Assembly (NCBI GenBank): GCA_964520905.1
Contig: CAZFQL010000007.1
Coordinates: 39,603 to 103,602 of the forward strand
Length of the DNA stretch: 64,000 nt
Source: an uncultured Chlorobiaceae bacterium
Lineage (GTDB): Bacteria > Bacteroidota > Ignavibacteria > UBA10030 > SZUA-254
Reading direction: 5' to 3'
In this document: in pieces, positions 836 through 20,244 of the stretch
Layout of the letters: the number at the start of each line of letters is the position of its first letter
Numbering within the stretch: position 1 is the first letter of the stretch
Translations under genes and position numbers: made by a program
The notes under the pieces: model-generated
The model's input: only the letters and a program-made list of their open reading frames with translations
Database searches by the model: none
What the model was told of the DNA's origin: nothing

Positions 836-883
836 GAAAATAATCTCGAATTACATTAACTTTACAATAATATAGGAGTAAAT

Positions 884-3310: not shown

Positions 3311-3320
3311 TAAGTTTATT

Positions 3321-3416
3321 CCGTGGTGTCAGGTGTTTCCACCTGGCACAAACAAAGTTTTTCGGGTACATAGTTTGCAGTGTAAGTGTCAGGACGTAAG
3401 TCCTGCCACCACACCA
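3321..3416. promoter_or_regulatory. Compound stem-loop element between sppA and the first sensor-phosphatase gene
   Basis: Two inner perfect 6-bp hairpins: CAGGTG-tttc-CACCTG (3330-3345) and CAGGAC-gtaa-GTCCTG (~3390-3405). They are enclosed by an imperfect outer pairing GTGGTGTCAGG (3323-3333) / CCTGCCACCAC (3404-3414). No obvious T-run follows. Confidence 0.3.
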
Positions 3417-3478
3417 ATATTGAATTGCAATTTACTTCCTTTTTCCTATATTATTGCGTTCATAATGGATGATAAAAT

Positions 3479-6400
3479 ATGACTTCACAAAAAGAGACAA
3501 TATCGAAACGAAAGCTTATCTTCCGCTACTTGATTCTCACTATCATGACGTTAGCTCTTGCAGGCATTCTCACGACAGAGGTGTGGCTAAACGGTGCCTT
3601 CATCAACTACACACATCTTAAACCGAGGTTCAGTTCTGATTCAATGTGGTTCTCGTGTGACCTTGAAGATATTTTGGAAATACGAAAAATGGGAGGAATC
3701 CCAATCACAGCCATCGATTCGGTTGGAGAAGCCTTTCGCTCTGGATTGAGAGCAGGAGATTTCATCGTAGCAGTCAACGAACAGAAGCTCACCGAAGTAC
3801 CTCAAGCATTCTATCGACCGTTCATTGGTGCACGTGAAGGCGACGAAGTCAGGTACACGTTCATCAGAAATGGCATCACCCGTAATTGCACAATTCCTCT
3901 CGTTGATAATTTTCCAAAACCGAGAGGCTATCTTGGAACATACCGACGTTCACCATCCGATACGACCGGGGGATGGAAACGAGATACGACCTACGGTATT
4001 CGGATCGTAAAGGTTGTAGAAAATGCGCCGGCTGAAGCAGCCGGGCTCCAGGCGGGAGATATCATTGTGGGATTCAATGGCGGCCGTGTAACCAATGAGC
4101 AAGAATTCATGTGGCGCTATGATGCCACGGACGCATACCAAAAGGTGGACATTGAAGTAGTCAGAGAAGGGGTGCGGCAGACACTATACGCATCGTTGGG
4201 AGAGCGGCCTGAATATCGCGTCACTTTATGGAACTACATTATCGAAGGATCTGTTGCCAAGGTTGTTTGGATGCGCACGTTGCCATGGATCCTGTTTTAC
4301 TTTATCTTTCTCATTGTGGGTGCCACAATCGGCTGGTTGCGACCACGAGATGCAACTGCGTTCTTGTGCTCGCTGGTACTACTCGCAAGTGGCTTAGGCG
4401 CCGTACTGACTAATACATACTTTCTGGCGGCGTTGTCATATCAGGTCTTGTCACTCCTTGGTTGCTTCACAGAGACTGCGATCGGATTGGCTCTTCCCTT
4501 GGTACTGCATGCTTTTGCCAGGTTTCCGAACCGTTCACGAGGTGGTGAACGCCTTCTGCGTTGGAGGTGGGTTTTCTATGTGTATTCGTTCCTCTACATA
4601 ATCACGGCTTGTACAAAGTGGTTAACGATTATCCATGGATGGAAAGAAACTTGGCTTATACTGAATCCGGTAGCAAAGATTCTTGGTAATCTGAATGAAT
4701 GGGTCATGTCACCAATTGTTCTTGTGATGGTTGTATTATTTGTTGCGCAACGAATCGAGACACGAAACAAGCCACAATCGAGACTCAAAATAATTGAATT
4801 GGGTTTGATCCTGGCTATCGCGGGAATGAGTCTTTATCTTCTTGCACCACCTGTCTATGACTTCCTTCCAACATCATGGCAAGCCACATACTACTTTGCT
4901 GGATTGATATTTCCCATTATTCTATATACAGCACTCCCACTCGCATTTGCCTACACGATTCTCACCCGAAAAATATTCGATATCCGCTTCATCATCCGCA
5001 AAGGCCTCCGATATATTCTCTTATCAAAAGGCGCTTTGCTTGTTGAAGGCATAATTGTTTTTCTCATTGTCATTCAAATTCTCAGTTATGCCGGGACAGA
5101 GTTTCTTAATACACCCACAGCCGTCGGTGGTGTAGCAGTAGCAAGCACACTAGCGGTAATCGCATTCGTTGGAAGAGTCAATCGTAAGCTCATGCCGGTT
5201 ATTGACCGACGGTTCTTCCGTGAGGTGTTAGATGTAAAACGATTGCTAATGGAATTGAATGAAAAATTATCTGAGATGAGAGAACGTGAGAAGATTCTCC
5301 AACAAACTGCATCAACGGTGTTGAAGGCACTGCATCCTGCAAGAGTTGTGATGCTATTGAAGGAAGGGAAGAGTACAGAATTCAAATCAGTCCTTGCCAT
5401 TGAAAACGAGGAACGCAAATTCCAGCCATTTCATCATTCTAAACTTGGTTCGGAATCTGAACAAGGCAGCGCCCAGACCCTGAAACTAGTTCAGGGTGAC
5501 GCTTTATTGAAAGCAGACTATGCCATCATCAGCCAGATGGAAGAAAAAAAGGGCTGGGCAATTGTATATCCAGAAACACTTGATCTTGAAAAAGATGAGG
5601 ATAAGCGATTATCAGCGGTCAATTGTGAATTGTTAATTGGTTTGCGTGGAAGCTCCGGACTTATTGGAGTTATGGGGCTTGGAGATAAACTCTCCGAGGA
5701 ACCGTATAGCAAAGAAGATAGAGAGCTTCTTCTCACCGTTGCCCATGAGATGGGGATGGCGCTTGAAAATGCAGAGTTACTCGAAGTCGCAAAACGGGAA
5801 GCAGAGTTTTCAAAAGAGTTGGATATCGCTCGACAAGTTCAGCAGAATCTCTTTCCAAAGCAATTGCCAACTCCGTCGGGCTGGGAGTTTGCTGGCATCT
5901 GTAAACCCGCAAAAGCAGTTGGCGGAGATTACTACGACATCTTCGAGCCAGTCCCCGGCAAAGTAGTTGTAGCATTAGGTGATGTATCAGGCAAAGGACT
6001 TGGTGCTTCGTTTGTAATGTCGGGTGTACACAGCACTATCCGAACGCAAGCAAAAAAAATATTTGATAATCCGGTTGAAATAATTGATGAGTTAAACGAA
6101 TATCTAATCGGGTCTACATCTAAGAACATATTCGTTACTTTGTTTTTAGGAATCATCGATCTTGAAACCGGTCGAATGCGATACGTCAATTGCGGGCATC
6201 CACCGGCGTTTGTTGTTCGGAAAGAGAATGGTGAGATAGAGAAACTGACACGCACCGGACTTGCACTCGGCATGATGAACACTGTCCAGTTTACTCAAGG
6301 GTTATCGACATTGAATGTAGGTGATTCGCTCATAGTTTACAGCGATGGCATCACCGAAGCGATGAATTCAACAGAGGAAATGTACGAAGAGGAACGATTG

Positions 6401-6547
6401 ACTCAGTTGCTTACTACAACTCTTGGATTGGATACCTCACACATGATGGAAGCGATATTGAAATCTGTGAGTGAGTTTATTGGGCAGGCAGAACAGTCGG
6501 ATGATGTGTCAATCATTTTGACAAGAAGGAAATTGGAGAAAGAATGA
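3479..6547 (+). CDS. Membrane sensor phosphatase, paralog 1: N-terminal TM anchor, two periplasmic PDZ domains, ~7-8 TM helices, coiled-coil linker, GAF domain, PP2C (SpoIIE/RsbU-type) serine phosphatase
   Basis: 1022 aa. PDZ motifs GLRAGDFIVAVNEQ and GIRIVKVVENAPAEAAGLQAGDIIVGFNG. Multiple hydrophobic helices in residues ~260-530. C-terminal PP2C signature GDVSGKGLGASFVMS...FLGIIDL...CGHPP...IVYSDGITEA. Stop overlaps the start of the next gene (ATGA at 6544-6547). Confidence 0.8.
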   Translation: MTSQKETISKRKLIFRYLILTIMTLALAGILTTEVWLNGAFINYTHLKPRFSSDSMWFSCDLEDILEIRKMGGIPITAIDSVGEAFRSGLRAGDFIVAVNEQKLTEVPQAFYRPFIGAREGDEVRYTFIRNGITRNCTIPLVDNFPKPRGYLGTYRRSPSDTTGGWKRDTTYGIRIVKVVENAPAEAAGLQAGDIIVGFNGGRVTNEQEFMWRYDATDAYQKVDIEVVREGVRQTLYASLGERPEYRVTLWNYIIEGSVAKVVWMRTLPWILFYFIFLIVGATIGWLRPRDATAFLCSLVLLASGLGAVLTNTYFLAALSYQVLSLLGCFTETAIGLALPLVLHAFARFPNRSRGGERLLRWRWVFYVYSFLYIITACTKWLTIIHGWKETWLILNPVAKILGNLNEWVMSPIVLVMVVLFVAQRIETRNKPQSRLKIIELGLILAIAGMSLYLLAPPVYDFLPTSWQATYYFAGLIFPIILYTALPLAFAYTILTRKIFDIRFIIRKGLRYILLSKGALLVEGIIVFLIVIQILSYAGTEFLNTPTAVGGVAVASTLAVIAFVGRVNRKLMPVIDRRFFREVLDVKRLLMELNEKLSEMREREKILQQTASTVLKALHPARVVMLLKEGKSTEFKSVLAIENEERKFQPFHHSKLGSESEQGSAQTLKLVQGDALLKADYAIISQMEEKKGWAIVYPETLDLEKDEDKRLSAVNCELLIGLRGSSGLIGVMGLGDKLSEEPYSKEDRELLLTVAHEMGMALENAELLEVAKREAEFSKELDIARQVQQNLFPKQLPTPSGWEFAGICKPAKAVGGDYYDIFEPVPGKVVVALGDVSGKGLGASFVMSGVHSTIRTQAKKIFDNPVEIIDELNEYLIGSTSKNIFVTLFLGIIDLETGRMRYVNCGHPPAFVVRKENGEIEKLTRTGLALGMMNTVQFTQGLSTLNVGDSLIVYSDGITEAMNSTEEMYEEERLTQLLTTTLGLDTSHMMEAILKSVSEFIGQAEQSDDVSIILTRRKLEKE

Positions 6548-9303
6548 TTACACCGAGAGAAAATCCATCGCGCTGGACAATGGTGTTCCGGTACACAACC
6601 CTATCAATTTTGACGTTTTATATCTTAATTTGGTTAATAGTGTTTTTTAGTGAACAGGGGTTCGTGACATGCTCTACTGGTATTTCGTTAAGGGGCATTG
6701 AGAAAGAGAAACCCTTCGATTCCCTATCAGTGATTAGGAGTAAAGGATTTGTAATTGTGGAGAAAGTAGATTCCAATAGTATAGCAGAGAAGGCTGGTGT
6801 TTTTATTGGAGATACAATTGTTACGGTTGATGGAACTCAATTAAAAGATAAACCCCAATTGTTTTATAAAATTTGGACGAAATCTCCTTACGGCGACACG
6901 CTGAATATCGGATTAATAAAAAATGGTACGCAGGAGAATCGAGTTCTTGTCCTTGATAAGAAAGAAGGCATTTTATCTTATCTGACTTATAACTTCCAGG
7001 TTCTATTCTGGATTCTCAGCTTCGTTGTTGGTGGACTAATTGGATGGATGAGAACCAGGGACTCTATTGCCTTTCTATGTTCGGTTTTCTTCCTTTGCTT
7101 AGGGTTTAAGGAAGAGGTTTATTATTCATTGCTTCCATACTGGGCGATAGTAATTGTGATTACTTTAAATTCAATTACGGCGGCGATTGGTCTTCCGTTG
7201 GGTTTACGATTATTTTCGATCTTCCCAAATCCATCGCGTTTCGGTAAAGTATTGTGGCGATGGCAATGGGTTGCATTTCTGCTGTTTAGCCTCAACGCGT
7301 TTATACCTTATACTAAAAATCTCAGTGTATTGCTTGAGTGGTCAATTATAATACCATTGACTCAACAGGTGGCTCAAATGTTTGAACCGGTTGGAGCTGC
7401 ATTATTTGTTGCGTTGTTATTACTTATAATACCACTTTACCTTTCACAAAGAAAAGCGACTCGAGATCGTCCCCAGGCTCGACTGAAAATCATTGAGTTC
7501 AGCATTTTATTCTGGGGATTATCTGCATTAGCGGCGTTAGTTTTTGCTCTAATTGGGTCAATGTTACTAAAATCATTGGACGATATTCCCCGTCCGATTT
7601 CAGTGGTTTTATTGACTATTTTTATTTTCCCATTTTTGATCAGCATGCTCGCTATTCCAATCTCGTTTGCATACACAATCCTTACACGTAAAATCTTCGG
7701 TATCCGCTTCATCGTCAGGAAAGGTCTCCGATATCTTCTCCTATCCAAAGGTGCATTGCTTGTAGAAGGTATAATTGTTTTTTTCATCGTCATTCAAATC
7801 CTCAGTTATGCCGGAACAGAGTTTCTCAATTCACCCACCGCTGTAGGCGGTGTAGCAGTTGCAAGCACACTGGCAGTAATCGCAGTCGTCGGGAGAGTCA
7901 ACCGCAAACTCATGCCAGTTATCGATCGGCGATTCTTCCGTGAAGCTTTGGACGTGAGAAAGTTGTTGATGGATTTGAACGAACAATTATCTGAGCTTAG
8001 GGAGCGAGAAAAGATACTTCAGTTGACTGCTTCGACTGTTCTCAAAGCACTCCATCCATTACGAGTAGTGTTCTTGTTGAAAGAAGAAAAAGCAAAGCAT
8101 TTCAGATGTGTTCTCGTGCAGGAACATGAAGCGAAGCAAGCCCCATCTGGAAAGACAAATGGCCTAACCCGTCATTCTGAATTTATTTCAGAATCTCAAT
8201 CCCAGCCACTTGCCAGTGATGAGATGCCGAAACAAGTTCGGCATGACGATGTTAATTATTTGAAGTCAAATGATTCCATCATCCGTCAGTTAGAAGAAAA
8301 GAAATCCTACGTAACAATTTATCCCGAGAAACTCGACCCCGAAGTTGAAGGAGACAAACGATTACTCGATCTCAACTGTGAACTCTTCATCGGAGTTCAA
8401 GGAAGCGCAGGGCTCGTTGGCATCATGGCACTTGGCGGAAAACTCTCCGAAGAGCCATTCAGCAAAGAAGATCGAGATTTACTAACGACAGTTGCCCGAC
8501 AAATGGGACTTTCGCTGGAGAATGCAGAACTGTTGGAGGTTGCTAAGCGAGAAGCTGAGCAATCACGAGACCTGGAGATTGCGAGATCAGTACAACAAAA
8601 CCTTTTCCCAAAACAACTGCCGGTTGTTGCGGGCTGGGAATTTGCCGGCATCTGCAATCCGGCAAAAGCAGTCGGTGGAGATTACTACGATATCTTCGAA
8701 GCAGTGCCTGGGAAAGTAGTTGTGGCATTAGGTGATGTGTCGGGTAAAGGACTTGGGGCATCGTTCGTTATGTCGGGTGTTCACAGCACGATTCGAACGA
8801 ATGCAGAAAAATCATTCGACAATCCCGTCGGACTAATCAATGAGTTGAATAAATACCTTCTTGGATCGACATCGAAGAACATATTCGTTACTTTGTTTTT
8901 GGGAATCATCGATCTTGAAAGCGGTCGAATGCAATATGTCAATTGTGGCCACCCACCGGCGTTTGTTGTTCGGAAAGAGAATGGTGAAATAGAGAAGCTC
9001 ACACGCACCGGACTTGCACTCGGTATGATGAATACCATTCAGTTTACTCAAGGATCATCGACATTGAAAGCGGGTGATTCACTCATTGTCTACAGCGATG
9101 GTATCACTGAGGCGATGAATGAGAAAGAAGAATTTTTCGATGAAGAGCGTTTGGTGAAGGTTGTGAATACAGCATCGAAGTTGGAAGCTGCTTCAATGAT
9201 GGAAGAGATAATGAAATCGGTTAATAAGTTTGCAGGTACGCACGAGCAAGCTGACGATATTTCGGTTATTATTGCTCAACGACAGAAATCCATTTCTTCA
9301 TGA
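6544..9303 (+). CDS. Membrane sensor phosphatase, paralog 2 (PDZ–polytopic TM–GAF–PP2C)
   Basis: 919 aa. N-terminal TM, one PDZ (IAEKAGVFIGDTIVTVDG), polytopic TM region, then GAF/PP2C. The C-terminal ~400 aa are near-identical to the other paralogs. Confidence 0.8.
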   Translation: MITPRENPSRWTMVFRYTTLSILTFYILIWLIVFFSEQGFVTCSTGISLRGIEKEKPFDSLSVIRSKGFVIVEKVDSNSIAEKAGVFIGDTIVTVDGTQLKDKPQLFYKIWTKSPYGDTLNIGLIKNGTQENRVLVLDKKEGILSYLTYNFQVLFWILSFVVGGLIGWMRTRDSIAFLCSVFFLCLGFKEEVYYSLLPYWAIVIVITLNSITAAIGLPLGLRLFSIFPNPSRFGKVLWRWQWVAFLLFSLNAFIPYTKNLSVLLEWSIIIPLTQQVAQMFEPVGAALFVALLLLIIPLYLSQRKATRDRPQARLKIIEFSILFWGLSALAALVFALIGSMLLKSLDDIPRPISVVLLTIFIFPFLISMLAIPISFAYTILTRKIFGIRFIVRKGLRYLLLSKGALLVEGIIVFFIVIQILSYAGTEFLNSPTAVGGVAVASTLAVIAVVGRVNRKLMPVIDRRFFREALDVRKLLMDLNEQLSELREREKILQLTASTVLKALHPLRVVFLLKEEKAKHFRCVLVQEHEAKQAPSGKTNGLTRHSEFISESQSQPLASDEMPKQVRHDDVNYLKSNDSIIRQLEEKKSYVTIYPEKLDPEVEGDKRLLDLNCELFIGVQGSAGLVGIMALGGKLSEEPFSKEDRDLLTTVARQMGLSLENAELLEVAKREAEQSRDLEIARSVQQNLFPKQLPVVAGWEFAGICNPAKAVGGDYYDIFEAVPGKVVVALGDVSGKGLGASFVMSGVHSTIRTNAEKSFDNPVGLINELNKYLLGSTSKNIFVTLFLGIIDLESGRMQYVNCGHPPAFVVRKENGEIEKLTRTGLALGMMNTIQFTQGSSTLKAGDSLIVYSDGITEAMNEKEEFFDEERLVKVVNTASKLEAASMMEEIMKSVNKFAGTHEQADDISVIIAQRQKSISS

Positions 9304-9315
9304 AAGATCAGGTTG

Positions 9316-10815
9316 ATGAATACTTACATGGTTCGTAAAACATTAGTAGTTCTTTTTGTTGTCGTATTGGTGGTTGCGCGAGCACTTAGCCAGTCGCCGC
9401 ACATACCTGATTGGGCGCTCGTCCATACGAGAACGATGGAAGGAATCGATTCACTCTACAACTTCAAGTTCACTACCGCCGAAGCGAAGTTCAATGATGT
9501 TATTCGCATGGCACCGCAGGACCCGCGAGGATATTTTTTCAAGGCAATGATTTCCTACTATCGGTTTGAGTTCATGAGCGTTGAAACCGATTACGATCGC
9601 TTCATAGAACTTTCGGATTCAGTAATAGAAGTAGCTGAAAACGTCATCGACAACGATGAGAAGAACTCTGCCGCTCTTTTCTACCTTGGCGGAATTTACG
9701 GATACAGAGGAATTGTCAAGTCGGAAAAAGATGAAATCCTCTCCGCGGTTTGGGATGGGAAGAAAGGATACGGCTACCTGTGTGATGCGCTCGAAATCGA
9801 TCCAAAGAATTACGATGCCATGATGGGAGTCGGATTGTTCAACTACTATCTATCCAAAATACCCAAGGCATTTCGATGGATTGCCACCGCTATCGGTTTC
9901 GATGCAGATCGTGAATTAGGATTGAGGATGCTCGAACGGACTGCACGGAAGGGGACATACGCCCGGAACGAAGCACGATGGTGGCTTTCTCAATTTTACC
10001 AGTGGGAGGGTGAGACAGAGAAAGGAGTGCAATATCTCAAAGAATTGAGTGAGAGTTATCCGAACAATCCGTTCTATGTTCAAAGGTATGGTTATGCTCT
10101 CCTATTTTCGTTGCGCAGAGTAGATGAAGCAATTCCTGTGTTCAAGAAGTCAGTTTCCATGACAAACTGGGAAGCTCAACGATACATCACGCAAGGGTAC
10201 CATCGGCTTGGGCATTGCTATCGATTCAAGAGCGAGTACAAGGAGGCGATTGAGGCGTACACAAAGTTCATAACATCGGTCACATTAGATACAGCACAAC
10301 AGCTCTATGCTCATTATTGCATTGGCTTGTGCTACGAAATGATGGGAGATCGAGATTCGGCACTCCCATACTATCAGAAGTCGCCAGCATATGCTTCAGA
10401 ACGTCTGAAACAACCAATGAATGAGTACGACATTGAGTTTGAGAAAATGTCGAACTGGTTTAGTGCTGGATACTATACGAAGGGATTCGATGCAGGATTT
10501 GCTTTGCTCGCACGGAAGGATCTCACGGACGACCAACAGGGCAACATTCTATGGGAGATTGCTTCCACCTATTTTGAACAAAAAGACTACACGCAAGCTT
10601 CGAACAAGTACATGCAGGCCACGGGTTTGACTATCAAGAATAAATCGTGGATGCCGCCGTTTGCCTACTACCGACTTGGATTGTGCAACCTCCGGAATGG
10701 GCAGGAAGATTTGGCGAAGAAGGCATTTGAGAAGGCACTTGAGTTCGAGAAGTACGATAACGAAGAGTACATTCGGGAAGTCGTTGAGGAAGAGTTGGAT
10801 AAGATCAATGACTGA
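9316..10815 (+). CDS. Secreted tetratricopeptide-repeat (TPR) protein embedded in the sensor-phosphatase operon
   Basis: ~500 aa with an N-terminal signal peptide (LVVLFVVVLVVARALSQS). Helical repeat content with many W/Y/L TPR-like pairs (e.g. GHCYRFKSEYKEAIEAYTKF). ATG at 9316; the ORF track uses TTG at 9313. It starts 10 nt after paralog 2's stop and ends 10 nt before paralog 3's ATG. Confidence 0.6.
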   Translation: MNTYMVRKTLVVLFVVVLVVARALSQSPHIPDWALVHTRTMEGIDSLYNFKFTTAEAKFNDVIRMAPQDPRGYFFKAMISYYRFEFMSVETDYDRFIELSDSVIEVAENVIDNDEKNSAALFYLGGIYGYRGIVKSEKDEILSAVWDGKKGYGYLCDALEIDPKNYDAMMGVGLFNYYLSKIPKAFRWIATAIGFDADRELGLRMLERTARKGTYARNEARWWLSQFYQWEGETEKGVQYLKELSESYPNNPFYVQRYGYALLFSLRRVDEAIPVFKKSVSMTNWEAQRYITQGYHRLGHCYRFKSEYKEAIEAYTKFITSVTLDTAQQLYAHYCIGLCYEMMGDRDSALPYYQKSPAYASERLKQPMNEYDIEFEKMSNWFSAGYYTKGFDAGFALLARKDLTDDQQGNILWEIASTYFEQKDYTQASNKYMQATGLTIKNKSWMPPFAYYRLGLCNLRNGQEDLAKKAFEKALEFEKYDNEEYIREVVEEELDKIND

Positions 10816-10825
10816 GGAACCGAAA

Positions 10826-13531
10826 ATGCCACCGTTAACACAAAACCCATCGCGCTGGACAATGGTGTTTCGGTACGCCAGTCTTACGTTGCTGATGATC
10901 TACCTCACCAGCATGATCGTTTTTGTGTTCTGGATTGGAGGATTCAGCATGGGCAGGACAGGAATGAGGTTGGATAAAGACACGGTCGGAGTCTATGGCG
11001 TGCGGCAGTTGGTTCGAGAAAAGGGTGGTTTCACTATCATCAAGATTGATTCCGCAGGTGTCGCAGCAAAAGCGGGCATGCGAGTCGGAGATAAAATCAC
11101 AGCCGTGAATGGAGTTGAATTAAAGGATGATCCAACTGTGTATGATCGGGCAATAGTGCACGGAGAGATGCTCGTACAGGTGGCCGGTAATAAGGGTGAG
11201 ATGGAAGTATACCTAAACCTCCCTGTGAACGTAGTAATAGGGATTCCCTTGCTCACCGCCCTTGTTTCCTTATTTTTCTTAAGCGGATTATTGATCGGCT
11301 GGTTACGGCCGGCGGATAAGACTGCGTTCAACTGTTCGATCTTTCTCCTTGCATTCGCTGCAGGGTTGTGTGATGATTTTATCAAGTACTTACCACAGTG
11401 GGCGTGGGCTATCGCTATGTTATATTCCATGATCACCGAGGCACTGGTACCTCCCATGGCTATGCGGCTGTTTTCTGTTTTTCCGAATCCCTCACGATTA
11501 GGCAGATTCCTATCGAAATGGCAATGGACCTTCTTCCTGATCGCGGGTTTCATTGCCATGGTCGACTACGGAGGTAGATTTGCAGAATTGTATGAGTGGC
11601 AGTTTATCAGCCAAAGTAGGGAACTGCTTGATAGTTTTTACGGATACCTGACAGTTGTCTTCATCGTTACTGTGTGCTCACTCGGCATTGCTCTCTATTT
11701 CGCCCAGCGGATTGAGACGCGGGGTCGACCACATTCGCGTATCAAGGTGATAGAGCTTGGCTTTCTTTCATCACTGACTGCGATTTTGGTTCCGGTAGTA
11801 ATATATGCCGTCATTTACCTCTTTCAAGTCTCGATAGAACTAGAAGGAGTGTGGATTATCATTCTTATACTCTTGTTCTTTATTGCCCTCTCTGGAATTC
11901 CGGTCTCATTCGCTTACGCTATACTCTCGAGCAAGATATTCGGCATCCGCTTCATCCTCCGTAAAGGTCTCCAATATCTTTTCCTATCCAAAGGTGCGTT
12001 AGTTATCGAAGGCATAATCTTCTTCTTAATTCTGTATCAGATTATCAGTCATGGTGGAACTGCATTGGCAAGCTCACCAATGCTTGTGAGCGGCATCTCG
12101 TTTGGACTGGGAATCTTAGGAGTATTTACACTAAACCGAGTCAACCGCAAGCTCATGCCCGTCATCGATCGCCGCTTCTTTCGTGAAGTGTTAGATGTGA
12201 GAAAATTACTATTGGATTTGAATCAACAATTATCAGCTATCCGAGAGCGAGAACAGATACTTCAGCAAACAGCTAATACGGTTCTCAGAGCACTTCATCC
12301 AGCAAGAGTTGTGATGTTCTTGAAACATGGGAAATCTGATGAGCTCAGATGTGAATTAACACTTGAGAATGAACGAGCGAAGCCAACAACGCACAGCCCA
12401 ACCCGTCATCCTGAACTTGTTTCAGGATCTGAACCAAGCTCAGCCCAGATGCTGAACCCAGTTCAGCATGACGCGGGAATTGGTGGGATGTTGAAAACCG
12501 ATGATGCCATCATCAATCAAATGGAAGAAAAGAAAGGTTGGGTAATCGTTAACAGAGAAACACTTGATCTTGAAAAGGATGAAGATCAGCGATTATCAGC
12601 GGTCAATTGTGAATTGTTAATTGCCATTCGTGGAAGTTCAGGGCTTGTTGGTATTATGGGACTTGGCGGGAAACTCTCAGAAGAGCCATACAGCAAAGAA
12701 GATCGAGATTTACTAACGACAGTTGCCCGACAAATGGGACTTTCGCTGGAGAATGCAGAACTGTTGGAGGTTGCTAAGCGAGAAGCCGAGCAATCACGAG
12801 ACCTGGAGATTGCGAGATCAGTTCAACAAAACCTTTTTCCAAAACAACTGCCGGTTGTTGCGGGCTGGGAGTTTGCCGGCATCTGCAAACCAGCAAAAGC
12901 AGTCGGTGGAGATTACTACGATATCTTCGAAGCAGTGCGTGGGAAAGTAGTTGTAGCATTAGGCGATGTATCAGGTAAAGGACTCGGGGCTTCGTTTGTC
13001 ATGTCTGGAGTTCATAGCACGATTCGAACAAACGCAGAAAAATCAATCGATAATCCCGTTGTGCTAATCAATGAGTTGAATAAATATCTTCTAGGTTCAA
13101 CATCGAAGAACATTTTCGTCACTTTATTTTTGGGAATCATTGATCTTGAAACCGGCTTGATGAAATATGTCAATTGTGGACATCCACCTGCGTTTGTTGT
13201 TCGGAAAGAGAATGGTGAATTTGAAAAGCTCACCCGCACCGGACTTGCACTTGGTATGATGAACACCGTCCAGTTTACTCAAGGTTCATCAACATTGAAA
13301 GTAGGTGATTCTCTCATCGTCTACAGCGATGGCATCACCGAAGCGATGAATGAGAAAGAGGAAATGTACGAAGAGGAACGATTAACTCAGCTGCTCACTA
13401 CAACTCTTGGATTGGATACCTCACACATGATGGAAGCGATACTGAAATCAGTGAGTGAATTTATTGGACAAGCGGAACAGTCGGATGATGTGTCAATGAT
13501 TTTAGCGCGGAGAACAGAGGAGATATCATGA
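10826..13531 (+). CDS. Membrane sensor phosphatase, paralog 3 (PDZ–polytopic TM–GAF–PP2C)
   Basis: Start reassigned to ATG 10826 (MPPLTQNPSRWTMVFRY...), which aligns with the N-termini of paralogs 2 and 5. The track ORF from 10661 overlaps the TPR gene with a low-complexity extension. PDZ motif VAAKAGMRVGDKITAVNG. GAF/PP2C C-terminus conserved. Confidence 0.75.
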   Translation: MPPLTQNPSRWTMVFRYASLTLLMIYLTSMIVFVFWIGGFSMGRTGMRLDKDTVGVYGVRQLVREKGGFTIIKIDSAGVAAKAGMRVGDKITAVNGVELKDDPTVYDRAIVHGEMLVQVAGNKGEMEVYLNLPVNVVIGIPLLTALVSLFFLSGLLIGWLRPADKTAFNCSIFLLAFAAGLCDDFIKYLPQWAWAIAMLYSMITEALVPPMAMRLFSVFPNPSRLGRFLSKWQWTFFLIAGFIAMVDYGGRFAELYEWQFISQSRELLDSFYGYLTVVFIVTVCSLGIALYFAQRIETRGRPHSRIKVIELGFLSSLTAILVPVVIYAVIYLFQVSIELEGVWIIILILLFFIALSGIPVSFAYAILSSKIFGIRFILRKGLQYLFLSKGALVIEGIIFFLILYQIISHGGTALASSPMLVSGISFGLGILGVFTLNRVNRKLMPVIDRRFFREVLDVRKLLLDLNQQLSAIREREQILQQTANTVLRALHPARVVMFLKHGKSDELRCELTLENERAKPTTHSPTRHPELVSGSEPSSAQMLNPVQHDAGIGGMLKTDDAIINQMEEKKGWVIVNRETLDLEKDEDQRLSAVNCELLIAIRGSSGLVGIMGLGGKLSEEPYSKEDRDLLTTVARQMGLSLENAELLEVAKREAEQSRDLEIARSVQQNLFPKQLPVVAGWEFAGICKPAKAVGGDYYDIFEAVRGKVVVALGDVSGKGLGASFVMSGVHSTIRTNAEKSIDNPVVLINELNKYLLGSTSKNIFVTLFLGIIDLETGLMKYVNCGHPPAFVVRKENGEFEKLTRTGLALGMMNTVQFTQGSSTLKVGDSLIVYSDGITEAMNEKEEMYEEERLTQLLTTTLGLDTSHMMEAILKSVSEFIGQAEQSDDVSMILARRTEEIS

Positions 13532-16410
13532 ATTCTTCAATAGATACCATATCGAAACGAACACTTGTATTTCGTTGCTCATTAGTTGCATTGCTAACGG
13601 TAATTCTTACCTTCATTGTTATTCATTGGATTTGGTCACTCGATGCTTTCCCTAAGTTCTTAAGTAATCAGAGTGCGTTAGGTTTAAATTACATCCGAAG
13701 TCCTGGTGATACTTCAATGCTGTTTGGGAACATTTATGAGATTAATTCAATACGGAAAAATGGTGGTTTGACCGTTGCTTCTGATATTGATTCATCCGTT
13801 CTAGCTTTTCAGTGGGGAATTAGACCGGGTGACAAGATTACCGCAATTAATGGAATATCGCTTCAAGAAAATCCAAAAGTATTTTATCGCGCATTCTCTA
13901 AAAAAGCCAAGGGCCAAAAATTAGAAATTAAATTCATCCGCGATGGTATCGTCTCACAAATCGAGAGTTCTTTTGCAATTCCTGATTCTTTAATGAAGTG
14001 GGGTGGACAGGGGTCATGGGCATTTTCAGTTGGAAATGTCAAAGGTGTCTATACATTCGATACGTTCAGATTAGTTGCTGATACTCCCTACCTTTTTCTC
14101 TCTATTCTCCTATTGCTCGTTGGTTGTATTATTGGTTTGTTGAAACCGAGTAATTCGGTCGCATTTCAAATCTCCATTCTTTTTCTCCTCTTAGGATGTA
14201 TGGCGAATAGTATGCAATTTGATTGGTTCCGCCTTAGTGCAATTTTGCCTGCCTGGTTATTGATAACTACATTTGCTGCTTTCGCGCTTGCTCATGGAAT
14301 CGGTATACCTCTGTTATTGCGTGTTCTCTCAGTGTTTCCAAATCCGACAAGACTGGGAAGATTATTTCTCCGATTTCAGTGGATAGCCTTCATCTTTTTT
14401 CTTACTCCCGCAATTATCGAATTCTCACCAAAATTAGTTAACCTGCTCGGATTGGACATAAATTTGTTCGATTCAATCTTCATAGAGTGGGTACACAAAT
14501 TCGATAATTGGCTCTTGTTATTTGCCTTAATTGTAGGTTTGGCGTTACTCATCTCTCAACATATTGAAACGCGGCATAGACATGAATACCGGCTTAAAAT
14601 TATAGAATTCTCTTTTCTTATTGGTTTGCTTGGCGTTGTCTTATATTATGTTGCCCTTTATGTATTTAGTAGAGCCAACATAAGTCTGTCCCAAAATATG
14701 GCAAACATCATTGTTGTATTATGGAATTTCACGCCCACACTCGCTGTTGGTACTATACCGCTCGCTGTAACGTACACCATAATAACCCGTAAGATATTTG
14801 ACATTAAGTTCATCATCCGCAAAGGTCTGCAATACCTGCTTTTATCCAAAGGAGCGTTGGTCATAGAAGGCATCATCGTCTTCCTGGTCGTTTTTCAAGT
14901 CATCACGCACGGAGGAGAGAACATCGCAGGTTCACCATTTGCTGTGAGTAGTTTGTCAGTAGGAAGTACATTAGCGGTCATCTTTGTTCTTGGGAAAGTC
15001 AATCGCAAAGTCATGCCCGCCATTGATCGGCGTTTCTTCCGTGAAGTGTTGGATGTGAGAAAATTACTTTTGGATTTGAATCAACAAATATCAGCTATCC
15101 GAGAGCAGGAGGAGATACTTCAGCAAACAGCTAATACCATTCTTAGGACACTCCATCCGGCAAGAGTTGTGATGTTCTTGAAACATGGGAAGTCTGATGA
15201 GTTCAGATGTGAATTGACACTTGAAAATGAACGAGCGAAGCCAACCCAACCACGTCATGCTGAACTCGTTTCAGCATCCATACCAAGCAACGTTCAGATC
15301 CCGAACCACCTGCCCGCCGCTTCGCTTATGCAGGCGGGAGTTCGGAATGACGGCTTAGTGAGTGGGATGCTCAAGACTGATGATACCATTATCAAACAGT
15401 TGGAAGAAAAAAAAGGCTGGGTAATCGTCTATCCAGAAACACTTGATCTTGAAAAGGATGAGGATCAGCGATTATCAGCGGTCAATTGTGAATTGTTGAT
15501 TGGCTTGCGTGGAAGCTCGGGACTGATAGGAGTAATGGGCCTCGGAGATAAACTCTCGGAAGAACCATACAGCAAAGAAGATCGAGAGCTTTTGCTTACC
15601 GTTGCCCATGAGATGGGGATGGCACTTGAAAATGCGGAGTTGCTCGAAGTCGCGAAACGAGAAGCAGAATTTTCAAAAGAACTGGATATCGCTCGACAAG
15701 TTCAGCAGAATCTCTTTCCAAAGCAATTGCCAACGCCATCGGGGTGGGAGTTTGCCGGCATCTGTAAACCAGCCAAAGCAGTCGGTGGAGATTATTACGA
15801 CATCTTCGAGGCGGTACCGGGGAAAGTGGTTATTGCATTGGGTGATGTATCGGGTAAAGGACTTGGGGCCTCGTTTGTTATGTCGGGTGTTCACAGCACG
15901 ATTCGAACAAACGCAGAAAAGTCAATCGACAATCCCGTCGGGCTAATCAATGAGTTGAATAAATATCTGCTCGAATCGACATCGAAGAACATATTTGTTA
16001 CTTTGTTTTTTGGAATCATCGATCTTGAAACAGGAAAACTCTGCTACGTTAATTGCGGGCATCCACCAGTGTTAGTTGTTCGGAAAGTGAATGGTGAAAT
16101 AGAGAAGCTCACACGCACCGGACTTGCACTCGGTATGATGAACACCGTTCAGTTTACTCAAGGGACATCGACATTGAAAGCAGGTGATTCGCTCATTGTT
16201 TACAGCGATGGCATAACCGAAGCGATGAATGAAAAGAATGAGGAGTATGAGGAAGAAAAATTGATTAAATTGCTCAATGAAGGAATAGGATTAGATACTT
16301 CTCAAATGATGGAAGAAATACTGAAATCGGTAAGTGATTTTATCGGGCAAGCGGAGCAGTCGGATGATGTGTCGATCATTTTAACACGAAGGAAATTGGA
16401 GACAGGATGA
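13528..16410 (+). CDS. Membrane sensor phosphatase, paralog 4 (PDZ–polytopic TM–GAF–PP2C)
   Basis: 960 aa. ATGA start/stop overlap with paralog 3. Divergent N-terminal periplasmic/TM region (PDZ-like GIRPGDKITAINGISL). Conserved C-terminal GAF+PP2C. Confidence 0.8.
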   Translation: MNSSIDTISKRTLVFRCSLVALLTVILTFIVIHWIWSLDAFPKFLSNQSALGLNYIRSPGDTSMLFGNIYEINSIRKNGGLTVASDIDSSVLAFQWGIRPGDKITAINGISLQENPKVFYRAFSKKAKGQKLEIKFIRDGIVSQIESSFAIPDSLMKWGGQGSWAFSVGNVKGVYTFDTFRLVADTPYLFLSILLLLVGCIIGLLKPSNSVAFQISILFLLLGCMANSMQFDWFRLSAILPAWLLITTFAAFALAHGIGIPLLLRVLSVFPNPTRLGRLFLRFQWIAFIFFLTPAIIEFSPKLVNLLGLDINLFDSIFIEWVHKFDNWLLLFALIVGLALLISQHIETRHRHEYRLKIIEFSFLIGLLGVVLYYVALYVFSRANISLSQNMANIIVVLWNFTPTLAVGTIPLAVTYTIITRKIFDIKFIIRKGLQYLLLSKGALVIEGIIVFLVVFQVITHGGENIAGSPFAVSSLSVGSTLAVIFVLGKVNRKVMPAIDRRFFREVLDVRKLLLDLNQQISAIREQEEILQQTANTILRTLHPARVVMFLKHGKSDEFRCELTLENERAKPTQPRHAELVSASIPSNVQIPNHLPAASLMQAGVRNDGLVSGMLKTDDTIIKQLEEKKGWVIVYPETLDLEKDEDQRLSAVNCELLIGLRGSSGLIGVMGLGDKLSEEPYSKEDRELLLTVAHEMGMALENAELLEVAKREAEFSKELDIARQVQQNLFPKQLPTPSGWEFAGICKPAKAVGGDYYDIFEAVPGKVVIALGDVSGKGLGASFVMSGVHSTIRTNAEKSIDNPVGLINELNKYLLESTSKNIFVTLFFGIIDLETGKLCYVNCGHPPVLVVRKVNGEIEKLTRTGLALGMMNTVQFTQGTSTLKAGDSLIVYSDGITEAMNEKNEEYEEEKLIKLLNEGIGLDTSQMMEEILKSVSDFIGQAEQSDDVSIILTRRKLETG

Positions 16411-19121
16411 TACCATCGAAAGACACCCCATCACCCCGTACAATGGCGTTTCGTTACGCCAGTCTTACGTTGCTGACGATCTACCTCACCAGTATGATCG
16501 TTTTCGTAATCTGGATTGGAGGAGTCACTACTGGGTCTCCGGGGATGAGGTTGGATAAAGACACGGTCGGAGTCTATGGCGTGCGGAAGTTGATTCGAGA
16601 AAACGGTGGTTTCACTATCATCAAGGTTGATTCAGCAAGAGTCGCAGCGAAAGCCGGGCTTAGAGTCGGTGACAAGATCGTAGCCGTGGATAGTGTGGAG
16701 ATCAAGGAAGATCCAAGAATATACGATCTGGTATTGGCGCGGGCTAAGATGCAAGTGCGAGTGGAAAGGAGTGGACACACTGAGGAAGTTGCTCTGGTCA
16801 TGGAGGATAATTATTTGGAAATCGGAGTTTTCCTCCTGCCTGTTTTCTTCATTGTTGGGGCATTGATTGGCTGGCTCCGACTGGGCAATTCAGCTGCATT
16901 CGAATGTGCGATCTTTTTCCAATGCATCGCCGCCGCGTCGTGCGATGTATGTTTTCAATATTTACCCGATTGGGGATTAGTCATCGGAACGATTTATTCC
17001 ATGACAAGCAAAGCTCTGTGGTTGCCTATGGGTGTGAGAGTATTCTCCGTCTTTCCGAATCCTTCACGGTTCGGTAGGTTTTTGTGGAAATGGCAATGGA
17101 TCTTCTTTCTTGTCCCCGGTCTGCTTGCGCTGATTAATTATACTGATAACTTCGCCCGCCTGTTCGGATGGCAGGCAGTCATCCAGATTATTGACCCGCT
17201 GAACAGATTTGCCGGAAACGGATACGTCATCTTTGTGGGTGTTGTTTGTGTGCTCGGAATCGCTTTGTTCGTTTCACAGCGTAAAGAGACACGCGACAGT
17301 CCGCAAACAAGGATAAAAGTGATCGAGTTCGGGTTTCTTACATCCGCGATAGCATTTGGCATGTGCCTCGTTGGAATTGCAATCTTTCTTATCTCTGGTT
17401 TGTCGACCCCTATTAGTGATGACAGTGGAGTCATTGTGAAGGTTATGTTTCTCACCATGATGCTCGGCTTAATTGTTGGGCTCTTTGCTATTCCGTTCTC
17501 CTTTGCATACGCTCTACTTGCGAGTAAGATATTCGGCATTAAGTTCATCGTTCGGAAAGGTCTGCAATATCTCTTCTTATCCAAAGGTGCGTTAGTCATA
17601 GAAGGTATTATTCTCTTTTTAATTCTGTATCAAATTATCAGTCATGGTGGAACTACATGGGCAAGCTCACCAATGCTCGTAAGCGGATTATCGTTTGGAC
17701 TTGGAATCTTAGGAGTATTTACACTAAACCGAGTCAACCGTAAACTCATGCCTGCCATCGACCGACGGTTCTTCCGCGAAGCGTTGGACGTGAGAAAGTT
17801 GTTAATGGATTTGAACGAACAATTATCTGAGTTACGGGAACGAGAAAAGATACTTCAGTTGACTGCTTCGACTGTTCTCAAAGCACTCCATCCAGCCAGA
17901 GTGATGATGCTATTGAAACATGGAAAGTCTGATGAATTCAGATGTGAATTAACAATTGAAGATAAGCGAGTGAAACTTACTCAACCAGAGCAATCCAGTC
18001 CTACCCGTCATGCTGAACTCGTTTCAGCATCTATACAAAGCAACGTTCAGATCCCGAACCGAGTTCGGGATGACGCTGGGGGCGGGTTTGTATTGAAAGC
18101 TGAGGATTCCATCATCAAACAGTTGGAAGAAAAGAAGGGTTGGGCAATCGTCTATCCCGAAAAACTCAACCCCGAAGTTGAAGGAGACAAACGATTACTC
18201 GATCTTGACTGCGAACTTTTCATCGCAATTCAAGGAAGCGCAGGACTCGTTGGTATCATGGCACTTGGCGGAAAACTCTCAGAAGAGCCATTCAGCAAAG
18301 AAGATCGAGATTTACTAACGACAGTTACCCGACAAATGGGACTTTCGCTGGAGAATGCAGAACTGTTGGAGGTTGCTAAGCGAGAAGCCGAGCAATCACG
18401 AGACCTGGAGATTGCGAGATCAGTACAACAAAACCTCTTTCCAAAACAACTGCCGGTTGTTGCGGGCTGGGAGTTTGCCGGCATCTGTAATCCAGCAAAA
18501 GCTGTTGGCGGTGATTACTACGATATCTTCGAGGCAGTCCCCGGAAAAGTAGTTGTAGCGTTAGGGGATGTGTCGGGTAAAGGACTTGGTGCTTCGTTTG
18601 TAATGTCGGGTGTGCATGGCTCTATCCGCACTCGTGTTACTTCATGTATTAATGAACCTTTAAAATTAATCGAAGAGCTTAATGCTTACCTTTTATCATC
18701 AACAGCTAAAAATATCTTTGTCACTCTTTTCTTCGGTATCATAGACCTTGAAACAGGAAAACTCAGCTACGTTAATTGTGGGCATCCACCTGCAATTGTG
18801 ATTCGACAAGAAGGGAATCAACAAGAACGGCTTACGCGAAACGGACCCGGACTTAGCATGATTGCCGGCGCTCGTTTCACTCAAGGAGGATGCCTATTAC
18901 AGAATGGCGATACAATTGTAATTTACAGTGATGGTGTAACTGAAGCAAAGAATAACCAGGAGGAAATGTATGAGGAAGAACGATTATCCGAATTATTGAA
19001 CAATGCATCGGGATTAGAAGCCACGGCAATTATGGACAAAATACTGAAGTCAGTTGATAGATTTGCTTTAGGAGCTGAACAAGCGGATGATATCTCGGTG
19101 ATTGTGGTAAGGAGATGCTGA
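16407..19121 (+). CDS. Membrane sensor phosphatase, paralog 5 (PDZ–polytopic TM–GAF–PP2C)
   Basis: 904 aa. ATGA overlap with paralog 4. The N-terminus resembles paralog 3 (RTMAFRYASLTLLTIYLTSMIVFV). The PP2C domain is the most divergent of the five (GIRTRVTSCINEPL...AIVIRQEGNQQERLTRNGPGLSMIAG). Confidence 0.8.
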   Translation: MIPSKDTPSPRTMAFRYASLTLLTIYLTSMIVFVIWIGGVTTGSPGMRLDKDTVGVYGVRKLIRENGGFTIIKVDSARVAAKAGLRVGDKIVAVDSVEIKEDPRIYDLVLARAKMQVRVERSGHTEEVALVMEDNYLEIGVFLLPVFFIVGALIGWLRLGNSAAFECAIFFQCIAAASCDVCFQYLPDWGLVIGTIYSMTSKALWLPMGVRVFSVFPNPSRFGRFLWKWQWIFFLVPGLLALINYTDNFARLFGWQAVIQIIDPLNRFAGNGYVIFVGVVCVLGIALFVSQRKETRDSPQTRIKVIEFGFLTSAIAFGMCLVGIAIFLISGLSTPISDDSGVIVKVMFLTMMLGLIVGLFAIPFSFAYALLASKIFGIKFIVRKGLQYLFLSKGALVIEGIILFLILYQIISHGGTTWASSPMLVSGLSFGLGILGVFTLNRVNRKLMPAIDRRFFREALDVRKLLMDLNEQLSELREREKILQLTASTVLKALHPARVMMLLKHGKSDEFRCELTIEDKRVKLTQPEQSSPTRHAELVSASIQSNVQIPNRVRDDAGGGFVLKAEDSIIKQLEEKKGWAIVYPEKLNPEVEGDKRLLDLDCELFIAIQGSAGLVGIMALGGKLSEEPFSKEDRDLLTTVTRQMGLSLENAELLEVAKREAEQSRDLEIARSVQQNLFPKQLPVVAGWEFAGICNPAKAVGGDYYDIFEAVPGKVVVALGDVSGKGLGASFVMSGVHGSIRTRVTSCINEPLKLIEELNAYLLSSTAKNIFVTLFFGIIDLETGKLSYVNCGHPPAIVIRQEGNQQERLTRNGPGLSMIAGARFTQGGCLLQNGDTIVIYSDGVTEAKNNQEEMYEEERLSELLNNASGLEATAIMDKILKSVDRFALGAEQADDISVIVVRRC

Positions 19122-19400
19122 TTGTGTCGCTCCTCTGGAGCTTTCCTGCTTTATTGACTTGTGCTACAAACATTTCGCTCCTACGGAGCTAATAACAAAA
19201 TATTTTTACTACATGAGTCCCGTAGGGACGAAACGTATATAGAAATAATAAACGAAATATATTAAGCTCCGTCAGTCCAAAGGACTCCTTTGAAGGAGCG
19301 AGACAAAATAGGAAATATGATTTCAGCTTGTGCTATAAATGTTGCGCTCCTACGGAGCTTTCATTCGATGATGATTTATAGGAGTCCCGTAGGGACGAGA
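19122..19400. repeat. Cluster of REP-like GC-stem hairpins upstream of the RAYT gene
   Basis: Repeated units: GCTCC-TCT-GGAGC (19128-19140); CGCTCC-TAC-GGAGCT (19176-19190 and 19345-19359); GAGTCCC-GTA-GGGACGA (19215-19231 and 19382-19398); AAGCTCCGTCAGTCCAAAGGACTCCTTTGAAGGAGCGA (19264-19301). All are short perfect palindromes. The loops carry GTAG/CTAC. Confidence 0.7.
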
Positions 19401-19468
19401 TGTTTATAGTATAGTATAAAAAAATAATCAAGCTCCATTAGATGCGAAACCATATAAGGATTGATTCT

Positions 19469-19942
19469 ATGGCAAACACATACACACAAATATACATACA
19501 TATTGTTTTTTCTGTACATGGTCGCCAGAGTCTGATTAAAACGGAATGGAAAGAACGATTGCATAAATATCTCACTGGGATCGTTAAGAACGAGAAGCAA
19601 AAGTTAATTGTGATAAATAGTATGCCCGACCATATTCATCTTCTCATTGGTATGAAACCAGATATTGCCCTATCGGATTTGATACGAGATATTAAGTCAA
19701 ATTCATCGAAGTTTATCAACGAACAACGGCTAACGCGAGGAAGATTCAATTGGCAAGAAGGATTCGGTGCTTTTTCAAATTCCCACTCACAATTGGATAC
19801 AGTGATACGATATATTCAGAATCAAGAACGACATCATGCTAAGAAAACATTCCGTCAAGAATATTTAGAGATGCTGAAGAAATTCACAATAGATTATAAC
19901 GATAAATATGTCTTCGAATGGATTGAAGGAACAAATGATTAA
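19469..19942 (+). mobile_element. IS200/IS605-family Y1 (HUH) transposase, REP-associated tyrosine transposase (RAYT/TnpA_REP)-like
   Basis: ~157 aa from ATG 19469 (MANTYTQIYIHIVFSVHGRQSLI...); an alternative upstream start lies at 19442. HUH motif MPDHIHLLIG. Size and motif order are typical of IS200 TnpA/RAYT. Flanked on both sides by REP-like hairpin clusters. No TnpB gene. Confidence 0.75.
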
Positions 19943-20150
19943 TTGTGCCGCTCCTCTGGAGCTTTTTCCTCTGATTTGGTTGGTTCTATCGACATCTCGC
20001 TCCTACGGAGCTGTTATGCGATGATAATAAAGTACCGTTCGGGACGAAATGTTTTGAGCCAAAGGCTCATGCACCTCTGGCGCAATAGAAAAATAATAGA
20101 AGATAAAATAAGCTCCGTCAGTCCAAAGGACTCCTTTGGAGGAGCGAAAC
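19941..20150. repeat. Second cluster of the same REP-like hairpins downstream of the RAYT gene
   Basis: ATTGTGCCGCTCCTCTGGAGCTTT (19942-19965), CGCTCCTACGGAGCT (19998-20012), the variant TACCGTTCGGGACGAAA (~20033-20047), and AAGCTCCGTCAGTCCAAAGGACTCCTTTGGAGGAGCGA (20110-20147). These are the same unit types as in 19122-19400. Confidence 0.7.
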
Positions 20151-20244
20151 TTACATCCTAAATCATAAATCTTATTTCCTGAATCTTCCATCATCAATCC
20201 TACATCCTTGTATCAATCTCTCTATTTGGTTATATTAAATCACC

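Follow-up and report, generated by a model that had tools for sequence, protein, structure and literature searches.

Mosaic blocks in a tandem array of five SpoIIE-type phosphatase genes point to short-patch recombination among paralogues and across lineages

Why do neighbouring genes whose 5' halves have largely diverged share short stretches of highly similar DNA, with the partner changing from one stretch to the next? The question is raised by a tandem array of five paralogous genes for predicted membrane-bound sensor phosphatases in an uncultured Chlorobiaceae bacterium (GenBank assembly GCA_964520905.1). The window, meaning the whole stretch analysed, covers 64,000 nucleotides (nt) of contig CAZFQL010000007.1 (positions 39,603 to 103,602 of the forward strand). 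The five paralogues, P1 to P5, and a gene for a TPR-repeat protein are placed in it as follows, in window coordinates:

P1, 3479-6547, plus strand: 1022 amino acids (aa); N-terminal transmembrane (TM) helix, two PDZ domains, a multi-TM block, a GAF-like domain, a linker helix and a SpoIIE/PP2C domain (from the open reading frame (ORF), Pfam and hydropathy)
P2, 6544-9303, plus strand: 919 aa; architecture like that of P1, with one PDZ domain; 4-nt overlap (ATGA) between its start and the P1 stop
TPR-repeat protein gene, 9313-10815, plus strand: 500 aa; lies between P2 and P3, and its stop overlaps the P3 start (Pfam TPR families, junction sequence)
P3, 10808-13531, plus strand: 907 aa with the ATG at 10808 taken as the start, in an ORF that is open from 10661 on
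P4, 13528-16410, plus strand: 960 aa; its start overlaps the P3 stop
P5, 16407-19121, plus strand: 904 aa; its start overlaps the P4 stop

Only one reading fits the data, namely that paralogue sequences have exchanged DNA, since segments of these genes give incompatible but well-supported trees, contain internal patches with divergent flanks and are highly similar at synonymous sites within the shared tracts. Probably, this exchange is short-patch homologous recombination among the paralogues and across lineages, which reassorts a small number of old block variants.

A codon alignment of the five genes has 3267 columns, to which column numbers refer below. In the 5' sensor part (columns 1-1575), the pairs show 42-49% identity, except for P3/P5 at 64%, and the last 1.2 kb at the 3' end is 67.5-82.7% identical. 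A previous sequence-only reading of this DNA had described the 3' halves as near-identical, which overstates these values: the tracts above about 90% are 120-700 nt long, and the longest exact match between copies is 97 nt. Its observation of a patchwork with breakpoints that regroup the copies is borne out by sliding-window identity, which shows repeated partner changes, with at least six switches of grouping within 1.7 kb. P1/P2 and P3/P5 pair up in columns 1576-1875 (P1/P2 85-87% at 1651-1800; P3/P5 81-88% at 1576-1800), and P3/P4 and P2/P5 do so in columns 1876-2100 (P3/P4 90-91% at 1876-2025). Three further groupings that had been named before are all present in the sequence. P1/P3/P4 separate from P2/P5 in the GAF region (columns 2251-2400), with 25 parsimony-informative sites of pattern 134/25 (splits are written with the copy numbers). 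In the linker and the first PP2C part (columns 2401-2700), P1/P4 separate from P2/P3/P5, with 49 such sites of pattern 14/235; P2, P3 and P5 are 97-98% identical to one another at columns 2401-2550 and 67-70% identical to P1/P4, which themselves share 89-92% at 2251-2550. Beyond a segment at about columns 2800-3000 that sets P1-P4 apart from P5, P1 and P3 pair at the 3' end, encoding the C-terminus (90-91% at columns 3001-3200).

The most mosaic copy is P3, which resembles P5 at its 5' end, P4 in columns 1876-2100, P2/P5 in columns 2400-3095 and P1 at its 3' end. The mosaic is thus found in the 3' halves, where it had been placed originally, but it also reaches the 5' halves, as in the first 300 columns or so, where P3 and P5 are 80-85% identical. 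Off-frame ORFs at 8492, 12723, 15602 and 18355 had been cited as repeated copies of one sequence; those at 8492, 12723 and 18355 are alike, but that at 15602 lies in P4 and is of the other sequence type.

A maximal-segment scan returned 13 tracts of 119-699 nt with 90.5-95.9% identity against a background of 42-75%, and several of them are internal patches whose flanks are 55-75% identical on both sides. Tracts and patches shared between copies include the following (fourfold, identity at fourfold-degenerate sites in the tract versus the rest of the same pair):

P2/P3 tract, 8430-9128 and 12661-13359, plus strand: 699 nt, 91.1%; fourfold 74% versus 44%, p = 3e-6; its core, 8460-8555 = 12691-12786, is a 96-nt exact match
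P2/P5 tract, 8320-8756 and 18153-18589, plus strand: 437 nt, 93.4%; fourfold 75% versus 42%, p = 3e-6
P3/P5 tract, 12661-12930 and 18263-18532, plus strand: 270 nt, 95.9%; fourfold 84% versus 50%, p = 1e-5; includes a 97-nt exact match at 12726 and 18328
P1/P4 tract, 5538-5947 and 15401-15810, plus strand: 410 nt, 90.5%; fourfold 61% versus 42%, p = 0.008; this is the second variant of the block that spans the GAF end, the linker and the PPM start
P1/P3 3'-terminal tract, 6251-6513 and 13235-13497, plus strand: 263 nt, 91.3%; fourfold 72% versus 45%; split 13/245 at 98% bootstrap
P3/P4 internal patch, 12182-12382 and 15040-15240, plus strand: 201 nt, 91.0%, with flanks at 60-75%; split 125/34 at 100% bootstrap
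P2/P5 internal patch, 7933-8058 and 17769-17894, plus strand: 126 nt, 94.4%
P3/P5 5'-end patch, 10964-11052 and 16545-16633, plus strand: 95.5%, inside the first 300 columns or so that are 80-85% similar

Recombination tests, which had been proposed as a check on the patchwork, agree with it in our implementations. The pairwise homoplasy index (PHI) gives z = -29 with 735 informative sites (p <= 0.001), and z = -22.8 when restricted to the 3' part. A GENECONV-like permutation of the longest run is significant in five of the ten pairs (global p <= 0.0005). No single tree holds along the gene, as neighbour-joining trees of its segments support the incompatible splits 12/345, 14/235, 125/34, 13/245 and 134/25 with 98-100% bootstrap. 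The PHI test, the run test and the incompatible splits therefore all show the incongruence by which interlocus recombination is recognised.

The similarity extends to positions that are silent in the protein. Third codon positions are 94-98% identical in the tracts shared by P2, P3 and P5, and 36-40% identical between block types. Fourfold sites are 61-92% identical in the 13 tracts versus 27-53% in the remainder of the same pairs (Fisher p from 1e-2 to 3e-6), with 92% in the core block of P2/P3 (columns 2551-2775, n = 39 sites). This contrast argues that the tracts have a recent common ancestor at the DNA level and that selection on the protein is insufficient to produce them. Between block types, the same codons show a fourfold identity of about 20-45%; thus, synonymous sites are free to diverge.

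Blocks of the same types recur in other genomes. Relatives of the array were collected from public genome and metagenome contigs, namely metagenome-assembled genomes labelled Bacteroidota or 'Chlorobiaceae' and sediment metagenomes; individual contigs carry L numbers here. In the TM region, P5 is 98-99% identical to homologue L019b (fourfold 96%, n = 103), whereas the S49 peptidase and TPR genes that flank the paralogues have a fourfold identity of about 65% (p = 1e-12). Over its final 700 nt, P5 is 84-95% identical to L024, with fourfold values of 88, 68 and 57% in three successive blocks, and the adjoining ABC transporter gene is saturated between the window and L024 (fourfold 27%; p = 1e-13 against the P5 3' end). 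The last 550 nt or so of P5 form a distinct type, common to L024 and L001b and not found in P1-P4. At its 3' end, P2 shares 91-95% identity with L019a, a P1-type gene, and P4 is 90-94% identical to L002a in columns 1726-1875, where the window paralogues reach at most 67%.

In a block map of 18 sequences, each block has few variants, which recur in different combinations, and PHI on ten full-length homologues gives z = -36. Each block retains two or three old variants, with about 83% protein identity and saturated synonymous sites between them; the copies of any one variant have diverged only recently and are distributed over paralogues and lineages. The nearest relative was determined for 53 non-overlapping 150-nt segments of the 3' parts against 13 homologues from 9 other contigs: it was clearly a paralogue from the window in 2 and a foreign gene in 19, whereas 24 segments gave ties and nothing was close in 8.

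Purifying or convergent selection on the catalytic module, with no exchange, would account for the fact that the shared blocks encode the most conserved protein segments. However, its probability is practically nil: fourfold sites are 74-96% identical within block types against about 20-45% between them, which already refutes it, and the groupings switch along the gene at 98-100% bootstrap. The block of extreme conservation, 8430-8729, also has no unusual RNA fold (z = -1.06) and no Rfam match. An element acting at the nucleotide level behind the conservation of this block was rejected on the same fold score, together with the absence of Rfam and tRNA matches anywhere in the window. That the array is an assembly artefact, in which repeated k-mers joined different strains or paralogues into a chimera, is very improbable. 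All sequences are metagenome-derived, and an assembler with k < 97 could cross the exact repeats of 96-97 nt (P2/P3 and P3/P5). Yet collapse is not expected with exact repeats of at most 97 nt; the five ORFs are intact and their overlapping start/stop junctions preserved; the mosaic boundaries extend beyond the exact repeats; independent assemblies from other studies hold the same block types in other combinations; and the source contig is 176 kb long. Assembly error is unlikely as a general cause, while single junctions at the 96-97-nt repeats remain exposed to it.

The sequence-only reading had favoured classical concerted evolution, in which ongoing conversion confined to this genome homogenises the 3' halves of the five copies. 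Its core, recombination between paralogues, stands on the incompatible trees and the synonymous identity of tracts between window copies. The youngest of these within the window, the P2/P3 tract (fourfold 92%, 39 sites), is also younger than the split from L002, the nearest relative found (flank fourfold 72-83%). Thus, exchange continued into the recent past, as far as one assembly can show. Homogenisation, however, is rather unlikely. Under concerted evolution, the copies within a genome should be closer to one another than to their counterparts in other genomes. A paralogue is clearly nearest in so few of the 3' windows (2 of 53, against 19 for a foreign gene), the 3' halves are 67-83% identical overall with two or three diverged variants kept per block, and the same blocks occur in L019, L001, L002 and L024 at identities well above flank divergence. 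It is unlikely, too, that birth and death by unequal crossing-over alone formed the mosaic, through chimeras of misaligned tandem copies with no later patch exchange. The head-to-tail layout favours such events, copy number ranges from 1 to at least 5, gene order differs among related genomes, and unequal crossing-over is surely a contributor to the change in copy number. But a single crossover leaves one junction, and at least six partner changes fall within 1.7 kb; internal patches of 120-200 nt with both flanks at 55-75% need two exchanges; and the blocks shared between genomes above flank divergence are left unexplained.

Short-patch recombination among paralogues and across lineages would work as follows. 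The array, apparently translationally coupled, lies in a hypervariable island of variable copy number, between conserved S49 peptidase and ABC transporter genes. The conserved DNA of the linker and the catalytic domain would supply the homology for strand exchange, and the sensor halves would mostly be too diverged for recombination. Patches of about 120-700 nt would then be transferred by homologous recombination, in a manner equivalent to gene conversion or double crossovers. The partners may be paralogues of one array and, after DNA transfer, arrays of different lineages. The outcome would be a pool that is reassorted, not homogenised, with four kinds of block: the GAF core; the GAF end with the linker helix and the first PPM strands; the PPM core; and the C-terminal part.

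Several points weigh against this account. No tract is assignable to an event inside this genome, as foreign sequence is as close or closer for most blocks. We infer cross-lineage transfer from the contrast between tract and flank divergence, and a vehicle for it was not seen. The array is known from a metagenome assembly alone, without a read-level check, and the comparison set consists of 13 homologues on 9 other contigs, several of them partial and all from metagenome assemblies. The PHI and GENECONV-like tests are our own implementations, not the reference programs. Likewise, we infer the enzymology (RecA-type recombination), the direction of events, the genome in which they took place and any functional benefit.

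The edges of the island are sharp. Compared with L002, nucleotide identity is 83-96% up to the stop of the S49 peptidase gene (3310) and 90-99% from the start of the ABC transporter gene (20245), and within P1, after the first few tens of bases, it is only about 45-55%. Hence, the array is a hypervariable island. In L002, a single paralogue is flanked by the S49 peptidase (93% aa identity), the ABC transporter (97.7%) and the next gene (91%). Copy number is one in L002, two in L020 and five in the window, a range of 1 to at least 5, with L001 and L019 seen in part. The order in L019 is S49, one paralogue, TPR and two paralogues, the last truncated by the contig end. In L001, it is S49, one paralogue, two proteins with type IX secretion system (T9SS) tails, TPR, one paralogue and the end of the stored DNA. 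In L003, S49 and TPR are followed by a 348-aa ORF with the GAF end and PPM only. A TPR gene followed by a paralogue is also found in L001, L003, L019 and L060.

Other contents of the island differ between genomes as well. The two T9SS-tailed genes within the L001 array (5808-11448) encode beta-propeller (SBBP) proteins, and L001 has, between S49 and its first paralogue, a homologue of window ORF 41-835; the gene content of the island therefore also varies. The 348-aa ORF of the more distant L003 (9950-10996) comprises the GAF end, the linker and the PPM domain with 82% protein identity to the P1 C-terminus; judged from its sequence, it may have arisen by truncation of a copy or may serve by itself as an output module. 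L020, also a distant relative, carries two tandem copies (743-3838 and 3926-6733). These have an identical upstream stretch (STQPKAYFTYLLSDSEQVF before the start) and tracts of 89-90% in their 3' parts, which indicate that the same kind of exchange occurs in another lineage.

Within the window, the junctions P1/P2, P3/P4 and P4/P5 are 4-nt overlaps, TPR and P3 overlap by 8 nt, and a 9-nt gap separates P2 from TPR. Given these overlaps and the short gap, P1-P5 and the TPR gene appear to form a single unit with translational coupling. All five ORFs are intact, with signs of inactivation in no copy, and tblastn found no further paralogue fragments in the window. In pilE/pilS-type variation, one expressed locus is accompanied by truncated, promoterless silent donor cassettes. 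Such programmed cassette variation does not match this array, in which all five copies are full-length, intact and part of one coupled unit. P1, P2, P4 and P5 are exact matches to P0008, P0006, P0005 and P0002 of the source NCBI contig. No exact database protein was returned for P3 with the 10808 start, and the source annotation may differ in its start site or status.

The five proteins share one layout by Pfam and hydropathy: an N-terminal TM helix, a PDZ domain (two in P1), about eight TM helices and a cytoplasmic GAF and SpoIIE/PP2C region. The Pfam SpoIIE model scores 165-170 bits in all five against a cut-off of 25, and the GAF match is weak; in P1, the E-values are 6.4e-49 for SpoIIE and 9.8e-19 for PDZ_2. 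The motifs GGDYYD, GDVSGKG, YSDG and (S/A)DD are invariant across the copies, and from general knowledge of the family we take them to be the metal-binding Asp motifs. An AlphaFold2 model of P2 aa 430-919 has a mean predicted local distance difference test (pLDDT) score of 83. The model contains a long helix, a GAF-like alpha/beta fold whose loop at model residues 103-139 is disordered, and a PPM fold; the linker helix spans 47 residues (model 212-258, P2 641-687). Foldseek searches with the PPM fold returned the phosphatase domains of RssB, Rv1364c, SpoIIE and SiaA (E about 1e-14). Accordingly, P1-P5 are predicted members of the SpoIIE/RsbU-type PPM (PP2C) phosphatases and, presumably, membrane-bound sensors. 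None reaches an NCBIfam equivalog cut-off, so no precise name is assigned, and no STAS or anti-sigma partner gene was found among the genes adjoining the array, to which the Pfam scan was limited. Membership in anti-phage defence was rejected, as no paralogue had a PADLOC match. The dimorphic block in columns 2401-2700 corresponds to P2 residues 631-730, that is, the last GAF strand, the whole linker helix and the first three PPM strands. One speculation is that the two linker variants insulate the dimerisation of co-expressed paralogues.

Interlocus gene conversion in bacteria is exemplified by tuf, by the PE/PPE and esx families of Mycobacterium and by the outer-membrane protein families of Helicobacter and Neisseria. 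The array resembles these cases in its tandem paralogues, short and uneven high-identity tracts, incongruent segment trees and synonymous identity. Unlike them, it shows no net homogenisation within the genome, its donor pool reaches other lineages, and its genes encode signalling enzymes rather than surface antigens or translation factors. Mosaic genes also arise by recombination between species, as in the penicillin-binding protein genes of Streptococcus and Neisseria. As there, blocks are far closer to the gene of another lineage than their flanks are, and the edges are sharp; here, however, the recipient is a multi-copy array and the selective agent is not known. In such a recipient, imported and resident blocks can spread further between paralogues. 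Related work includes PMC12046097, on M. tuberculosis and its gene conversion and duplication, and bioRxiv 10.1101/2025.10.29.685298, on mosaic divergence in tandem paralogues.

In PPM phosphatases of the RsbU, RsbP, SpoIIE and RssB type, sensor modules have been proposed to be exchangeable via a helical linker (PMC12143880, eLife 2025). P1-P5 have the same arrangement of a SpoIIE-family PPM domain after a GAF-like domain and a long linker helix. In contrast to those proteins, they carry an extracytoplasmic PDZ domain and about eight TM helices. The exchange also differs from that proposal in occurring among close paralogues and not between domain families. The locus nonetheless offers a natural data set for sensor/PPM exchange via the linker. 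It gives a fine-scale view of how a signalling family diversifies, with divergent membrane sensor halves joined to a few interchangeable linker and catalytic blocks, and of an exchange pool that extends beyond one genome. A practical warning follows: for these genes, orthology, trees and functional transfer apply per block, not per gene. As recombination between paralogues is familiar, the case has modest general significance; the locus is a clear example of a known process, recombination mosaicism in a tandem family with a lineage-spanning donor pool, and not a new mechanism.

The least expected element of the array is a pair of 24-nt hairpins, inverted relative to each other, that encodes the disordered GAF loop of each paralogue in frame. 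Their pattern is GTCAT-NCYGAA-loop-TTCRGNAT, with outer ends CGTCAT...ATGACG. The pairs are located as follows (signs give the orientation of each unit):

P1 hairpin pair, 5432-5500: first unit degenerate, second intact at 5477-5500 (-); RNA fold z = -2.2
P2 hairpin pair, 8171-8247: 8171-8194 (+) and 8224-8247 (-); RNA fold z = -3.6
P3 hairpin pair, 12405-12472: 12405-12428 (+) and 12449-12472 (-); RNA fold z = -4.9
P4 hairpin pair, 15254-15351: 15254-15277 (+) and a second arm to 15351 (-), split by a nested palindrome; RNA fold z = -2.3
P5 hairpin pair, 18007-18074: 18007-18030 (+) and 18051-18074 (-); RNA fold z = -5.5

The exact pattern has seven matches in inverted pairs, versus 0 expected, and none outside the paralogues in the 64 kb. 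Among ten copies of the stem, three of the eight base pairs vary, always on both sides; pairing is 98.8%, a value reached by 0 of 500 shuffles. These double changes alter both encoded residues (P..G, A..A, S..E), which argues that the hairpin is conserved and not the peptide. In P2, the hairpin-encoded loop has an AlphaFold2 pLDDT below 50. Close homologues carry GTCAT-bounded palindromes of other sequence at the same place, and more distant ones have none. The loop was also considered as a recombination hotspot, an idea that found no support: 0 of 7 informative sequences switch partner across it in a nearest-neighbour scan that is crude and weak. Partner switches peak at columns of about 1860-2100, 2570-2860 and 2960-3210 of the 18-sequence alignment.

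Rickettsia palindromic elements (RPEs) are palindromic repeats that lie in frame in protein-coding genes (PMC10969869, citing Ogata et al. 2000, 2002), and REPIN doublets are mobilised by RAYT transposases (PMC3116915, PMC3337134). The GAF-loop hairpins resemble both in having two inverted units with a short spacer, in-frame read-through into a disordered surface loop and different palindromic fillers at the same loop in different homologues. Unlike RPEs, their 24-nt units are much shorter and, within the 64 kb, are confined to the paralogues. A bolder and rather improbable proposal sees in the locus a natural system for the exchange of modules, in which sensor, GAF, linker/switch and catalytic sub-modules would be reassorted among paralogues and genus-level lineages and deeply diverged linkers would be kept to insulate dimerisation. 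The hairpin doublets would have a nucleic-acid function of their own, for example in mRNA processing or stability or as the target of a hairpin-binding Y1 transposase.

The second hairpin of P4 (15290-15340) has a further palindrome, CCTGCCCGCC...GGCGGGAG, nested in its loop, and in L001a the first hairpin holds a comparable nested insertion. From their sequences, these cases suggest repeated insertion of palindromes into hairpin loops. Downstream of the array, the window has a 1.1-kb insert (19121-20245); L002 and L024 have no such insert between their last paralogue and the ABC gene. The insert contains an ORF for an IS200-like or RAYT-like Y1 transposase at 19442-19942, flanked by hairpins that differ from those of the GAF loop. 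The short hairpins on both sides of this ORF are of the forms GCTCC-NNN-GGAGC (five copies) and GTCCC-GTA-GGGAC (two copies), and an 83% direct repeat (19239-19304 and 20085-20150) lies around it.

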